DNA of 64,000 bases from Squalus acanthias. Lineage: Eukaryota. This document shows positions 18,866 through 34,610 of the stretch, one piece after another (position 1 is the first letter of the stretch; each line of letters begins with the position of its first letter). The stretch lies in the NCBI GenBank assembly GCA_030390025.1, contig CM059431.1:110734001-110798000 (forward strand), in the 5' to 3' direction. Made by a program: the position numbers and the translations under genes. The notes under the pieces were generated by a model. The model made no database searches, was not told where the DNA came from, and saw nothing but the letters and a program-made list of their open reading frames with translations.

Positions 18866-19475
18866 TCTTCTTCTTAGGCAGTTCCTCAGAACCGAGGATG
18901 ACTTGCTTCCACATTAAAAATGAGTTTGCAGGTGACTGATGAGTCCAATGCGGGACCTACAGTCTCTGTCACAGGTGGGGCAGATGGTGGTTGAAGGGGC
19001 GGGTGGGTGGGGTGCTTGGGTTGACGTGCGCGCCTTGCGCTGCCTGTGCTTGGCTTCCGCTTGCTCCCGGCGAAGAGACTCGAGGTGTTTGGTGCCTTCC
19101 CGGATGCTTCTCCTCCACTTTGTTCGGTCTTGGTCCAGGGATTCCCAGGTGTCGGTGGGGATGTTACACTTTTTCAAGGAGGCTTTGAGGGTGTCCTTGA
19201 AGCGTTTCCTCTGCCCACCTGGGGCTCTCTTGCCGTGCCGGAGCTCCGAGTAGAGCGCTTGTTTTGGGAGTCTCGTATCGGGCATGCGGACAATGTGACC
19301 CGTCCATCGGAGCTGATCGAGTGTGGTCAAAGCTTCGGTGCTGGGGACGTTGGCCTGAGCAAGAACACTGACGTTGGTACGCCTATCCTGCCAATGGATT
19401 TGCAGGATCTTGCGGAGGCAGCGTTGGTGGTACCTCTCCAGTGCTTTGAGGTGCCTGCTGTACATGGTCCATGTC
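18866..19475 (-). mobile_element. RTE-clade (BovB-like) LINE, 5'-truncated 3' end; open frame 18914-19465
   Basis: Peptides ERYHQRCLRKILQIHWQDR, QLRWTGHIVRMPDTRLPKQALYSEL and GGQRKRFKDTLK, a C-terminal CPTC...SRIGLISH knuckle, a short 3' UTR and a (GAA)n tail. Confidence 0.9.
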
Positions 19476-19713
19476 CTATGTTCATCTAGCCCTATGCTCG
19501 GCGCCAGTTAAAAATCAGGACTTATCTTATTCCTGTTTTCTAATCTAGGATCCATCAGAAGATTGACCATCAAAAGGTCAAATTCTGATAAGAACCATTT
19601 CAATTAAGGGTAATATTTGTGTTTCTAGACATCACTGTGATTTCACTAAACTGTCTTTGAAGAATCTCCACAATGTTGGTCAATATTCTGTACAGGAATA
19701 TGTCAGAGTGCAT

Positions 19714-22777: not shown

Positions 22778-24270
22778 GAACATACGAACGAACATATGAA
22801 CAATGATGGACAGGTAAAGACCCTCTGGTCAATCCAGCCTGTCCCACACAATTGTGATACCTTCTGTATCACAACATATACACTCCCCCACCCCACCCCA
22901 AACCATGTGATCTCCGGGGAGAGGCAAAAACAGTGCTAAAAAACCCAGGCCAATTTGGGGAAAAAAATCTGGGAAATTCCTCTCCGACCCATCTAGGCGA
23001 TCGAAACTAGTCCAGGAGATCACTCTGGCCCTAAATTCCCTGCAGTACCTACCTTCTGTAAGAGGTGATCTCCGCCCCAGCCAGAAACAAATCCAGCTCT
23101 CGCTCGAAGGAATTCAGCAAATCAGCATCCACCGCACGAGACGGCAGCCTGTCCCAGAGGTCCCCTATTCTCTGGGAAAAGAACCACCTCCTGACATCTA
23201 ACCTAGATCTGGCCTTGTATAACTTAAATTTGTGACCCCTGGTCCTGCCTAACCTATTTAATTGAAATAAACTGTTAGCTGGCACAAAAGCTATTCCCTT
23301 CATTATCTTATAAACCTCAATCAGATCCCCCCTAAGTCTACGCTTCTCTAAGGTGTAGAGTCCCACCTCTTTTAGCCTGTCTTGATAACTAAGATGCTTT
23401 AGACTGGGAATTGGTCCAGTGGCTCCTCCTCTGCACCCTTTCCAAAGCCTCAATAACACCCACCATGTGAGGAGACCAAAACTGAACACAGTATTCCAAG
23501 TGCGGCCTGACTAAGGTCTTGTACAAGGACAAAGCAGTCTGCCTCCTCTTGTGCTCAATTGTCCTATGGATACACCACAACACCCTATTTGCTCTCGCTA
23601 TCGCTAGATGACATTGCTCATGTACCTTTAAGGATGTATGCATCAGAATGCCCAAATCTCTTTCTATCTCCACCATCTTTAATGCCTTTCCCTGAAGGGT
23701 GTGTGAATGTTGAGCATTTGCCCTGCCCACATGCATAACACTGCACGTATCGAAGTTATACATCATTTTCCAGTCTTGAGCCCAATCTCTCAAAACATTA
23801 AGATCCGCCTGAAGCAGACGAGCATCATCTACAGTTCTAACACTCACACAGATCTTGGTATCATCGGCAAATTTGCAGATTGTGCCCCCAACACCTACAT
23901 CCAGATCATTAATAAAAATAGTAAAGAGCAACAGTCCCAACACTGATCCCTGCGGGACACCACTGGTGACCGGTCTCCAAACAGATCCAAATCCATCTAT
24001 AATTACTTTTTGCCTACGTCCTGCCAGCCAGTTCTCAATCGCGCTCAATATATTACCACTAATACCAGAGGCTTCGATCTTATAGAGAAGACTCTTAGGC
24101 GGTACCTTATCAAAAGCTTTTTGGAAATCTAAGTAGACAATATCTACTGGACTTCCCTCATCCACCTACTTTGTAACTTCTTCAAAAAATACAATTGGAT
24201 TTGTAAGACATGACCTCCTTTTTATGAAGCCATGTTGGGTGTCCCTAATATATCCCTCTCCATCCAAGTA
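22778..24270 (-). mobile_element. CR1 LINE, 5'-truncated; reverse transcriptase pseudogene plus 3' UTR
   Basis: RT motifs YLDFQKAFDKV, GVPQGSVLG, KFADDTK and RPHLEYCVQFWSP. Frameshift between ORFs 23389-24165 and 23049-23489. Microsatellite tail at about 22778-22802. Confidence 0.95.
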
Positions 24271-26677: not shown

Positions 26678-27135
26678 CAAAAGTAAAATACTGCGGATGC
26701 TGGAAATCTGAAATAAAAACAGAAAATGCTGGAAATACTCAGCAGGTCAGGCAGCATCTGTGGAGAGAGAGAAACAGAGTTAACGTTTCATGTCGATGAC
26801 CCTTCGTCAGAACTGTAAAAAGCTGGAGATGGAACAGGTTTTTAAGCAAGTGCAGAGGCAGGGAAAGGGGGCGGGGGAGGAAAGAACAAAAGGGAAGGTC
26901 TGTGATAGGATGGAAGGCAGGAGGGATTAAGAGACAAAAGGGATGATGGTGCAAGGCAAAAGGAGAGGGTAATGGGACAAGTTAAGAAAGAAAAGATGGC
27001 TCTAGATGAAGTGTAAATGGCACTGGCAGAATGAAAGACAGCTGCCATGTGAGAAAGAGAAAAAAAAAATGGAAAAAAAAGATAGGGGCAGAGGTTATGG
27101 TCTGAAATTGTTGAACTCTATGTTGAGTCCAGAAG
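26678..27135 (-). mobile_element. Penelope-like element 3' end (last codons of the ORF plus pLTR)
   Basis: Minus strand 27135-27095 reads SGLNIEFNNFRP*, the GLN motif that ends PLE GIY-YIG domains. A pyrimidine-rich UTR follows, then a hammerhead-containing terminal repeat shared with 32465-32717. Confidence 0.8.
26778..26814 (-). ncRNA. Minimal type I hammerhead ribozyme motif (Penelope type), helix II weakened
   Basis: agtt-CTGACGA-agggtcatcgacat-GAAACGTT-aact. Confidence 0.6.
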
Positions 27136-30380: not shown

Positions 30381-31654
30381 CACTACAAGCTGGGGTGGAG
30401 ACAGATATTTTGGGCAGAGTAAAAGGACCTTCAAAATACAATTGGCTCTTGCTGCACCTAGCCTGGGAGTGCTGCATGCTGCGACTGAGTGAAAAACAGT
30501 TTCGCTGATATACTGAACCTTCACAGGCACAATGTTAAAAACAGTAACAACCCTCACACGTTAGTGTTGCAGGGTCGTGCTTTTTTGTCATCCTGCATTA
30601 AATAAGGGTAAACTTTTTGCATGTTCTTAGCATGTGCATGTCCCAATCTCGATACCAATTCTGAAATATTGGCTTTGTAAGCAATGTAAATAGGTACAGT
30701 AAGTAATGACAATCACGTTGCCATTTGTGGAATTCACAGCAACTGAATATCGTGGATTTGGCAGCAAAACGTACTGTAGACACAGAACGTTATTAATCAG
30801 CATGCATATAGATTGACACTTGGCAGTCTCATTTGGACCTTGCTTTACATTTGCCAAAAAGCATGAACCCTATTCTTATCCTTGCTTCGTATGGAGTGCG
30901 GAGATCAATAACCTGGTCCTCAGTAGACCAATCTCAGTATCTTTTGCTCCTGTATGTAAATCCAAGAGCGGAGTGTTTTTTTTTCTCTCACCCTCTGTCT
31001 CCGCCCACAGGCACAGTGCCGTCAGTGACAAGTCATACTGTTTGCTGAGAGCAATGCAAAGAGCTTCGGATTTGTCAGAAAAGCACACATGAAATTTTTG
31101 CTTTGTTGAGTAAAAAACCGATCTTAACAGGGAAAAAAACAAACAACCTTGCCAAAGAACTAGGCTGCTTTCTGGCACTGCCTCTGGTATTAGGTATCAG
31201 TTGCTCTCTGGAAAGATCCACCAACTGAATGTAACAACACCCTGAACCTTCCAGAATCAGCAGCATCGTAACATACTCTAGTAAGTAGAGAGCTCTGCAG
31301 TTCACTGCTACTGGGATGCAATTTTAAAGAGGAAAGCAAATGTTGTATCTCAGATTAGCAAGTCCATTTGCAGAAGAATAAAGTCTGTGTTTATTTTCTC
31401 TACTCTCCTGCCCACCCTTCCTCTATTTTTTTTAGGTTTAGATGCCTTTCTGCCTGCACTCTTCCACTGCTAGTCAGGATAAAGCAACATTCTGCCTCAC
31501 TGCGCTTCTTACTGTGCCGTCGCTCACACAAGTCGGACCCACTCCGCGAACAGTCAACTGGAGATGTCTCCCTCAAGGTGGAGCTTGTCCTAACAGTCTT
31601 TCTTCTCCTCCGCCTCCCAGCAAGAAGAAGCACTCTACCGTTGCTCAGAGTTCC

Positions 31655-31887
31655 TGGCTGTGCCTTCAGCTGTCTCAGCCCTTAGCTCTGGAATTCCCTC
31701 CCTAAACCTCCACAGCACTCGCTCCTCCTTTAAGATGCTCCTCAAAACCTACCTCTTCGACCAAGTTTTTAGTCGCCCGTCCTAACATCTCCTTCTTTGG
31801 CTTGGTGTCAATTTTTGTCCTGTGAAGCGCCTTGGGAGGTTTTACTACGTTAAAGGCGCTATATAAATGCAAATTGTTGCTGTTGTT
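31655..31887 (+). mobile_element. L2 LINE 3' end
   Basis: Homologous to about 62600-62849 and to the reverse complement of 19714-19970. Tail ggcgctatataaatgcaaattgttgctgttgtt. Confidence 0.88.
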
Positions 31888-32563
31888 CGATCCAACAACT
31901 TGATCAAAAACTGGTAAAAGTCAGACAATGAGGAGTTGACAAGTTTGAATGTCAATCGACCCACTTAAACTCACGGCCTTCTGGGTCCCCAAATCCAACC
32001 TGTTACTGCTAGAGTTATCAAGCTGACACAATAATGAGTCAGTGAAGCTCCCCATGTGGACCTACAGACAGCTTTTTGTATACCCATGACCTGAAACTAA
32101 AGGGTTATTTTATTCAGCAGTGAGAACTGCTGTTTCTTGTTACTGGATAAATATTAATCAGTAAGCTTACATAAATTTTCAGTGGACTTTTACATTATCT
32201 TACAGGAATCACATTAGGGCAGCAAAGAGCAAGTGACCTCATAGTGCTCAGAGGGAATAATGCAGCCATTTTCTCCATGGGTTGGAGAAACAAGAGTGAA
32301 AAAAAATTAAATAAACAAAACAGCATTAAAGCCATTGAAAAAAAAATACTAGATCAGGCGTAGATCAAAGTCTACTAACTTTGTCACTTGCACACTCCTC
32401 CTAAATGCTGAAAAGAATGAGAAGGGGCTAAAGCCAGTCTGTGTCAAGTTATGAATATAACTTAGCGATAGCAAAATACTGCGGATGCTGGAAATCTGAA
32501 ATAACAACAGAAAACGCTGGAAAAACTCAGCAGGCCAGGCAGCATCCGTGGAGAGAGAAACAG

Positions 32564-32600
32564 AGTTAACGTTTCAGGTCGAAGACCTTTCGTCAGAACT
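32564..32600 (-). ncRNA. Minimal hammerhead ribozyme motif (mirror copy)
   Basis: Exact reverse complement of 32622-32658. Confidence 0.7.
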
Positions 32601-32621
32601 GAAAAAAGTCCTGCTTTTTTC

Positions 32622-32658
32622 AGTTCTGACGAAAGGTCTTCGACCTGAAACGTTAACT
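32622..32658 (+). ncRNA. Minimal type I hammerhead ribozyme motif (Penelope type)
   Basis: Helix I agtt/aact, core CTGACGA(A), helix II aggtc-ttc-gacct, GAAA, and a palindromic loop-less helix III ACGT. Predicted cleavage after GTT (32654). Confidence 0.7.
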
Positions 32659-34177
32659 CTGTTTCTCTCTCCACGGATGCTGCCTGGCCTGCTGAGTTTT
32701 TCCAGCGTTTTCTGTTATTATGAATATAACTTAATTGGCAATGGCCCAGCTCTCTCTGCAAATGGGAAAAAAGTGTGAGAAGATGACATTTAATTTGCTG
32801 AATCAGTTTGTCTTTCAGACTTTCAACTTGATAAAGGTGAAATTGTTCTTGCTTTTGATCAAATCATTCTCTGTTATACATTTTTCCGTTAGATATACAA
32901 AGTACTGAATCCCTTCCGCGCCCTCCAAACATGTGTATTTTGGATAGCCTGATGGCCTCATGCTCTGACATCATAAAATGCCCTCAAATCGAAAGTAAAT
33001 TACAGTAATTTTTCACTTTGCCCATTGTTCTATATAGCAAACTGCTGGTCCCCCTGAGTGAGCCATTTCTCTACTATGGTGTTATTGATACATTTGTTTG
33101 TTGTTCCTAAAGTTTTTCTTCCCCTTCTTCTGCTTTCATGGTTTCCTTTTGGCCCATACCGTCACGAAGTGAAAGGAAGTGGCAGGTGATCAACCTGCCC
33201 CCAACCCTCCACCCACACTGCTCGAAGACTGACCATTTATTCCTTAAGAAAGAAGGTGTGTAAAAATGCTGTCAGCAACCCCAAAGAAAACAGCTGGTCA
33301 GGATGCAATTGTAGTATAAAGGTGTATGCAGTTGCTTGTTTCTCTTAGGTCTGTGCAGCCACAGTAGCCTTCATCCTGCTCAGAACTGCAGATATCCTGC
33401 CACACCTTCCCACGCTTACCTTTCATTAAAAAAAATCTTACTTTAGGTTAGAAAATGTAACTCCATCAATATTAGTGCTTTTTTTATGTAGCACCTTCTC
33501 TGCTCTTGCCTCTCCGCTTAAACCAGTCAACTACCCTAGGCTCCCCAACTGCCCATTAAGGTCGCCCATTAAAAGCAACACTATTTTCAATACATTTCCT
33601 CCTTTTCTGAATGTCCCCTCAATTCCCCACCAAGCTGTTCTATCCTACATTTACATGCACACCAACCAGCTCCCCTTATAGACCTGTTTGACAGCACCTG
33701 CAAATCCTGGTCAATCCCCTTTTTGCTCCAAATGAGCTTATTCTCCAATACTTGTTAATCAGGTTGCCAAAGGTTTTCTGATTACTGTACATACTCTTCT
33801 TTGGTAGACTGACTCATAAGTCTGATTTCCAATCTCACTGTGATATGGATGCCATAAAATGCTTCATTTATTTCTTCCAGTGAAATACAAAGATTATAAA
33901 AGTCAGCAGTTATTCACCCTTCTTTACAGTGTCCGTATTGTTGACTACAATGAAAATATTTTTAATTAATATATACTTTTATGTACAATTCAGCCACAGT
34001 CCTAAAATTGTTAAGTAGCTCCATGATCATCTGTTAAAACAAATCGAGCTGCCTCTGATCTCTTAGGTGCTAACGGTGTCACTAGGTTTGGTCTATACCA
34101 GGCAGAACAGAAGGATCCCTGGGCCAGTGGGAAAAAAAACAATCTGCTCCTGATCACAATATGGCGACCCCACCCCT

Positions 34178-34610
34178 GTTTTTTTTAATTCATTCATGGG
34201 ATGTGGGCGTCACTGGCAAGGGCAGCATTTATTGCCCATCCCTAATTGCCCTCTTGAACCGCTGCAGTCCATGTGGTGATACTTCTGTGTAGCGGTTTGG
34301 TACAACGGAGTGGCTTGCTAGGCCACTTCAGAGGCCACCACATTGCTGTGGGTCTGGAGTCACATATAGGCCAGACCGGGTCAGGACAGCAGATTTCTTT
34401 CCCTAAAGCACATTAGTGAATCAAATGGGTTTTTACAACAATCCGGTAGTTTCACAGTCACTGATACTAGCTTTTTATTCCAGATTTATTTAATTCACTG
34501 AATTTAAATTCCCCAGCTGCCGTGGTGGGATTTGAACTCATGTCGCTGGATCATTAGTCCAGGCCGCTGGATTACTAGTCCAGTAACATAACCACTATGC
34601 TACTGTACCC
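34178..34610 (-). mobile_element. tRNA-derived SINE, second family (tentatively MER131-like)
   Basis: Minus strand has A box TAGCATAGTGG and B box GAGTTCAAATCC. Homologous to 58108-58509. A-rich tail. Confidence 0.8.

Follow-up and report, generated by a model that had tools for sequence, protein, structure and literature searches.

A dead inverted Penelope-like element stub in Squalus acanthias and a candidate twin-priming route to its formation

The window analysed here, a 64,000-nt stretch of the Squalus acanthias genome (contig CM059431.1), holds at 32449..32733 a 253-nt insert without an open reading frame, enclosed by two identical 16-nt copies of TTATGAATATAACTTA, its target-site duplication (TSD; Table 1). 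TCCTG stands between two 103-nt arms (32506-32608, 32614-32716), each the exact reverse complement of the other, and taken beyond this exact stretch the arms match over 108 nt at 99%. The initial annotation had described a non-coding palindrome with a 5-nt loop, perfect 103-bp arms and a perfect 16-bp TSD; the arms, the TSD and the absence of any encoded protein were all borne out, but the symmetry was not. On the left, 41 nt (32465-32505), about 36 of them the tail of a Penelope-like element (PLE), have no exact partner in the opposite arm, so the unit is asymmetric, and the apparent loop is templated element sequence, namely the first 5 nt of the right arm. At 32717 the stub has a base other than the family's, and TTAT (32718-32721) is compatible with both the element end and the TSD. 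We have little doubt that 32449..32733 is a dead inverted PLE stub, and it is an ordinary miniature of an insertion pattern that has already been described. Arm positions below are numbered with the element 3' end as 0 and with the long copy L033 as reference.

Table 1. Features of the insertion, in positions of the 64,000-nt window
Feature	Position	Strand	Basis
Left TSD, 16 nt	32449..32464		Exact repeat of 32718-32733
Tailed arm: last ~143 nt of a Penelope-like element, made up of the hammerhead-bearing 3' part of the pLTR and the tail	32465..32608	-	98.6% identity to L033 -143..0
PLE tail of ~36 nt, in this arm only	32465..32500	-	Two family 3'-end classes
Minimal type I hammerhead motif in the tailed arm, cut predicted at 32568/32567	32564..32600	-	Mirror of 32622-32658
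Tail-less arm, head to head with the tailed arm	32609..32717	+	98.2% identity to L033 -148..-36
Minimal type I hammerhead motif of the tail-less arm, predicted cut after 32654	32622..32658	+	Sequence, family variants
Right TSD, 16 nt	32718..32733		Exact repeat of left TSD; empty sites

Each arm contains the hammerhead motif proposed for it, and the predicted cut after 32654 is correct by sequence; the description of two mirror-image hammerheads is right in that there is one per arm, but either strand carries only one in sense. The plus-strand motif reads CTGACGA-A-AGGTC(TTC)GACCT-GAAACGTT-AACT at 32626-32658 and is mirrored on the minus strand. With the preceding bases from 32622 it comprises helix I (AGTT/AACT), CTGACGA, one extra A, a 5-bp helix II and GAAA, and a palindromic ACGT stands where helix III would be. 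The features of a minimal type I hammerhead are present in the core formed by CUGANGA and GAAA, in both helix I and helix II, in the palindromic 15.2-16.2 and in the NUH site; the G10.1-C11.1 pair is replaced by A-U here and by G-U in some family copies. An Rfam scan gave no match to a hammerhead model; it returned one tRNA match and sub-threshold miRNA-hairpin matches, which we rejected because any long hairpin would give such matches. Among 189 motif-bearing arms, chosen by the presence of the core, the frequent variant sites were N7, loop II, N17 (U/C) and the A-U to G-U change, and the 45 commonest motif forms included no compensatory double change.

Contigs of two related organisms, B and C, run directly from 32448 to 32718 and keep one TSD copy, with hundreds of bases on each side of the empty site and flanks that are ~3.6% diverged. 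The orthologous empty site that the initial annotation had called for therefore exists, and its suggestion of a young insertion agrees with it. The alternative it offered for the perfect arms, homogenisation, is unneeded: the two arms of one insertion differ little in general, and identical arms likewise occur in 11 of 33 other palindromes, so perfect arms are unremarkable in a young copy. In organism A, contigs coming from each flank overlap the proper arm end, in the orientation that the structure calls for, by 22-25 nt; these overlaps fall below our bridging rule of 31 nt, and the right-hand one is present in two samples. The centre junction is unbridged in two short-read contig sets, in each of which one 31-nt piece extends 2 nt past the arm, into the loop. 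No RNA sample was listed as containing the region, and an RNA-labelled run gave no sequence over its centre, results that do not bear on expression.

Searching the shark's own genome (3.7 Gb) at the DNA level, with 40 of 1576 candidates scored, gave at least 18 two-armed loci, this one included, and many single arms; 14 of 18 two-armed loci have a TSD candidate of 12-16 nt. An exact 32-mer core of the family has 5971 matches in the genome and its reversed control none, so the matches are not due to chance, and two other family 32-mers have 20,230 and 20,464 exact matches, again with none for the reversed controls. To find the parent element we took 20 near-identical single-arm loci with 4-kb flanks. 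Two long copies, L033 and L047, both frameshifted or stop-broken, encode a reverse transcriptase (RT) together with a GIY-YIG domain at the C terminus in one long frame, with DKG and YIDD discernible; Pfam RVT_1 scores 24.3 bits (E 3e-5), under its cut-off of 29.6, and GIY-YIG 22.7 bits (E 1.2e-4) against a cut-off of 22.6. In L033, hammerhead-bearing pLTRs flank the ORF in partial tandem, and L084 shows an inverted pLTR followed by pLTR-ORF-pLTR. L047 contains the linker CKRRRCNTC (CX4CxxC) and YCIRCSRCGLLYIG, the internal two-cysteine motif of the C-terminal EN. The CX2-5CxxC linker motif is common to Neptune and Nematis (PMC8557442), and by the definitions given there the family is a C-terminal EN+ PLE of Neptune or Nematis type. 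Judged by its protein motifs, then, the parent family is an EN+ Penelope-like element, and in view of the vertebrate host its clade is likely Neptune rather than Nematis; in the vertebrates of a 2026 preprint only Neptune and Poseidon were found (bioRxiv 10.64898/2026.07.22.740005). The long-copy proteins, the pLTRs, the mapping of the arms and the empty site together support the earlier proposal that this is a Penelope insertion whose 5' truncation is extreme and whose pLTR is inverted. The window also contains an older solo copy of the same PLE family, ~450 nt long, at 26682-27135 (-), with 81% identity to the end of L033.

The family offers a view of how the two arms are combined. All family samples were drawn from the start of one contig, and the young sample consists of the first 69 core matches listed, minus 2 already taken and with close pairs merged, which left 60 consecutive loci. 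A directly joined inverted partner was present in 19 of them, and in all 19 pairs one arm was tailed and the other tail-less, an outcome with a probability of about 8e-7 if ends were drawn independently. The remaining 41 solo copies comprised 12 tailed, 27 tail-less and 2 shorter ones, and across 100 listed arms the 3' ends fell into two classes, 36 at -3..0 and 64 at -45..-27. Within pairs the tail-less arm reached further 5' in 10, the tailed arm in 6 and neither in 3, which argues against either arm being a plain copy of its partner; a strict leader-follower rule in which the tail-less arm is always longer was rejected, since it holds in only 10 of 19 pairs. Arm lengths within pairs correlate (rho 0.68, n=19, partly through ascertainment), and across pairs they form a continuum up to >2 kb. 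Arm divergence was measured in 33 of 39 junction-selected palindromes, 6 having been dropped for short overlap or failed alignment. Outside CpG sites the arms diverged by 1.5% within an insertion as against 5.2% between insertions (0 of 2000 permutations), and the two arms of one insertion belong to the same subfamily. Shared differences numbered 91 and discordant ones 66; 14 of 15 discordances at recurrent sites were at CpG, one non-CpG subfamily site was discordant between the arms of L218, five rare variants were common to both arms of one insertion, and 11 of the 33 palindromes had identical arms. A special fold at the start sites found no support, the stem predicted around -35 having z = 0.01 and -1.68.

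The 5' ends are also far from evenly spread. We mapped them for all 100 listed matches of a pattern 3' of the hammerhead, two arms being reassigned for a divergent upstream continuation and arms aligned past -200 (54 of 100) being scored as longer. Of these consecutive arms, 31 have their 5' end within -138..-121, the hammerhead's front half, whereas the 38 nt downstream hold 7 ends and the 62 nt upstream another 7. This amounts to a rate ratio of about 11 for a window that was picked after the data had been seen; among solo arms the count is 17 of 80 and the ratio 9.5. In an older subfamily the same window, now fixed, holds 8 of 30 arms (ratio 3.3, p 0.011) within a broader cluster of 18 of 30 at -147..-96, and 3 of 30 end at -106..-104, beside the predicted cut. 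The junction of 32449..32733 itself (-143/-148) lies 5-10 nt in front of the peak and outside it. Hammerhead cleavage was rejected as the main source of 5' ends, as no more than 2 of 100 young arms have their end within -106..-99, around the cut at -103, and it may account for a minor class. Splicing at the pyrimidine tract-CAG was likewise rejected as the cause of the hot spot: the ends span 18 nt, abut the TSD and have no common upstream exon. L236 and L245 of the older subfamily, and also L100 and L025, have arms that start within 1-2 nt of the predicted cut at -103 and are possibly copies of cleaved RNA.

Since 5' ends cluster at the front half of the hammerhead, short double-hammerhead palindromes recur. 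Head-to-head core pairs with a 0-9-nt spacer occur at 93 loci, and among the first 50 of these 5 have no spacer and 10 a spacer of 1 nt. Junctions predicted at two short internal palindromes, CAG-WW-CTG and helix II, were found at 48 and 44 loci. By contrast, the exact 37-nt centre junction of 32449..32733 has one match in 3.7 Gb, and the check for many copies with its GTCCTGC loop junction and length came out negative: similar copies have differing junctions, the very outcome that the initial annotation had named as speaking against a family. Same-junction copies that were sampled come from several subfamilies, their centre can face either way with respect to the tail, and in L217-L221 the tail-less ends vary from -33 to -46. 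Because recurrent junctions span subfamilies, orientations and ends in this way, they appear to be formed anew each time. Other joins are more complex. In L100 and L102 a short pLTR piece continues into the ORF, over its first 90-130 nt, and then rejoins another pLTR piece, and in L077 several pieces are chained before the rejoining, which suggests template jumps. A cluster at 6.99-7.14 Mb of one contig (L161-L166 and L254-L256) has same-strand copies with near-identical ends, including a variant with a different 3' continuation; it is likely a local segmental repeat, so its members are not independent.

Overall, we read 32449..32733 as a single recent PLE insertion with two head-to-head 3' ends, which likely arose as the two target strands, each of them nicked, primed reverse transcription on one and the same RNA from sites ~35 nt apart. 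The GIY-YIG domain would nick both target strands 16 nt apart, which would yield the TSD. One 3'-OH would prime at the end of the tail and the other at about -36, and the RNA would outlast the first pass and be copied twice. Both cDNAs would halt near the front of the hammerhead, at an RT stall or at the RNA 5' end, and end-joining would then seal the two cDNA ends. A related activity is known in vitro from the anole Poseidon protein, which cuts and extends both strands from two internal start sites with the tail between them, and works on uncleaved RNA (PMC11167929). Nonetheless, the start site in that assay does not differ between strands, and for this reason the strict one-of-each pairing of ends is not explained by it. 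That twin-strand priming took place on one RNA, as opposed to fold-back or two RNAs, we judge probable. More tentatively, and with slightly more doubt than belief, we propose for PLEs at large a coupled twin priming on a single RNA, in which a protein dimer sets the nicked strands on sites ~35 nt apart and one stretch is copied twice, a single step that would account for the pLTR's inversion, for the tail on one arm only and for the TSD. The main stop would be the front edge of the hammerhead, not its cut, and such events would mass-produce ~250-nt palindromes sealed at the ribozyme's internal palindromes.

The strongest competitor of priming on one shared RNA, though an unlikely one, is self-priming, in which a short palindrome lets the cDNA or antisense RNA form a hairpin and serve as its own template, and an endonuclease later trims one tail. 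Such folding back has been put forward for those inverted repeats of PLEs that have palindromic junctions (PMC3846280), and it would sit well with the rare variants common to both arms, the recurrence of junctions at CAG-WW-CTG and helix II, and the correlated arm lengths. However, the tail-less arm extends further 5' in 10 of 19 pairs and at 32449..32733 as well, by ~2 kb in L069 and L042, and many of the solo loci, 27 of 41, are tail-less. Copying the tailed cDNA could not extend an arm further 5', nor could copying the tail-less cDNA add a tail, so this route needs the extra trimming step. Less likely again is priming of the two target strands on two separate RNAs held by a protein dimer, which would accord with the dimer predicted for the anole protein (PMC11167929) and with the discordant site in L218. 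The excess of shared over discordant differences, the near-confinement of recurrent-site discordances to CpG and the five rare variants found in both arms all count against it, and free RNAs alone do not explain why all 19 pairs have one end of each kind. Variants shared by the two arms would fit one RNA molecule and two RNAs from one source locus alike.

The initial annotation had also raised a non-autonomous, orientation-independent ribozyme cassette. As a self-propagating MITE- or retrozyme-like palindrome functional in either orientation, it would be favoured by the exact recurrence of junctions at 48 and 44 loci, by the zero and 1-nt spacers and by the hundreds of short palindromes, and we nevertheless regard it as most improbable: the junction of this locus occurs once, copies that share a junction differ in subfamily, centre orientation and tail-less ends, arm lengths run on without a break to >2 kb, and non-LTR retrozymes are tandem repeats (bioRxiv 10.64898/2026.07.22.740005). 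Finally, an assembly artefact from a collapsed fold-back read, to which perfect arms could point, has next to no probability given the perfect TSD with its exact empty site in two other organisms, the organism A contigs that enter both arm ends (if under the 31-nt rule) and an asymmetric structure matched by many loci with TSDs of their own.

In L1 twin priming, both target nicks prime on the RNA and an inverted 5' part comes to lie between the TSDs; each of the two cDNAs covers a part of the RNA that the other does not. Priming from both nicks is common to L1 and the route proposed here, whereas in the stub the same part of the RNA is covered twice. Among PLEs themselves the closest parallels are EN+ insertions with an inverted 5'-truncated pLTR, a one-sided tail of 30-40 bp and a TSD, such as Pen2a_Av and Pen2_Av (PMC3846280) and Penelope of D. 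virilis (PMC2377424), for which a general scheme has been given (PMC8557442). The stub resembles them in its inverted end, its tail on one arm, its TSD, 5' truncation and head-to-head polarity, and differs in that it keeps only the two ends (253 nt, no ORF) and belongs to a very high-copy family. Dual minimal hammerheads on opposite strands, ~100-700 bp apart, have been noted in PLEs before (PMC4209133). Those hammerheads share with the stub a 4-bp helix I, an extra base after position 9, a palindromic 15.2-16.2 and the lack of a stable helix III, whereas the stub has a 5-bp helix II and, at 10.1-11.1, A-U (in some copies G-U) instead of G-C. PAc, a Poseidon element of Anolis carolinensis, is like our family in having its hammerhead at the start of the long frame, two 3'-end classes that bracket a tail ~100-130 nt downstream of the hammerhead, and a majority of copies that start away from the hammerhead cut (PMC11167929). 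The CX2-5CxxC linker sets our family apart from Penelope/Poseidon, and the accessible text of PMC11167929 does not report a strict one-of-each pairing of ends for PAc. Non-LTR retrozymes are, like the stub, non-coding, hammerhead-bearing and derived from PLE pLTRs; they consist of same-strand tandem repeats of hammerhead units (bioRxiv 10.64898/2026.07.22.740005, with PMC6155905 a further background source), whereas the stub is dispersed, forms an inverted pair joined at a unique junction and has one sense hammerhead per strand. The literature covered, which took in few subscription journals, held no paper on this shark family or on PLE twin priming.

What becomes of the hammerheads in a transcript can be judged from folding. 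The whole unit has a predicted folding energy of -211 kcal/mol and a single arm -20.6, and whichever strand is transcribed the antisense arm precedes the hammerhead, so that the ribozyme is predicted to be trapped in the hairpin. A single minimal hammerhead from S. mansoni is inactive and its dimer weakly active (PMC4209133). Taken together these points make a working cassette or switch at 32449..32733 unlikely, and with it the proposed alternation between a self-cleaving fold and a double-stranded hairpin. Both hammerheads would instead be passengers of the copied element end, locked by the 103-bp hairpin in any read-through transcript. A pyrimidine tract and CAG directly before helix I, at 32609-32623 (+) or about -150..-135 in the family, resemble a splice acceptor; Penelope of D. 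virilis has an intron that stops where helix I starts (PMC4209133), and the short family copies examined included no spliced one. In L033 the hammerhead lies within the ORF reading frame, at the start of the long frame, and in family copies whose core reads CTGATGA an ATG lies in frame within it, which resembles the anole element.

As a single locus the stub is of little weight, being one among at least hundreds like it. As a set, the stubs bear on how PLEs make their inverted pLTRs and tails, a process that has been called still undefined (PMC8557442). The inverted pLTR, the one-sided tail, the TSD and the opposite-strand hammerhead pairs are already known; the family-level rules merit testing. 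Three of them are testable, that a tailed arm joins a tail-less one, that both arms have the same template and that 5' ends cluster at the hammerhead front, and the existing in vitro system of the anole element (PMC11167929) could serve for all three. If transcribed, the stubs would in addition form a dispersed source of ~100-bp dsRNA.

Around the insertion, stop-to-stop frames of at least 110 aa contained no recognisable gene. A very high-copy repeat with a TTG-rich end, probably a SINE, lies at ~31650-31890, 570 nt to the left, and a weak, below-threshold tRNA-like match at 34555-34609 (-) is possibly a SINE head. Fragments at 23052-24165 (-) and 18917-19507 (-) resemble LINE reverse-transcriptase ends. 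Elsewhere in the genome, at L038, a 424-aa open frame ~2.5-3.8 kb from a family copy resembles an N-acetyltransferase and is presumably a host gene.
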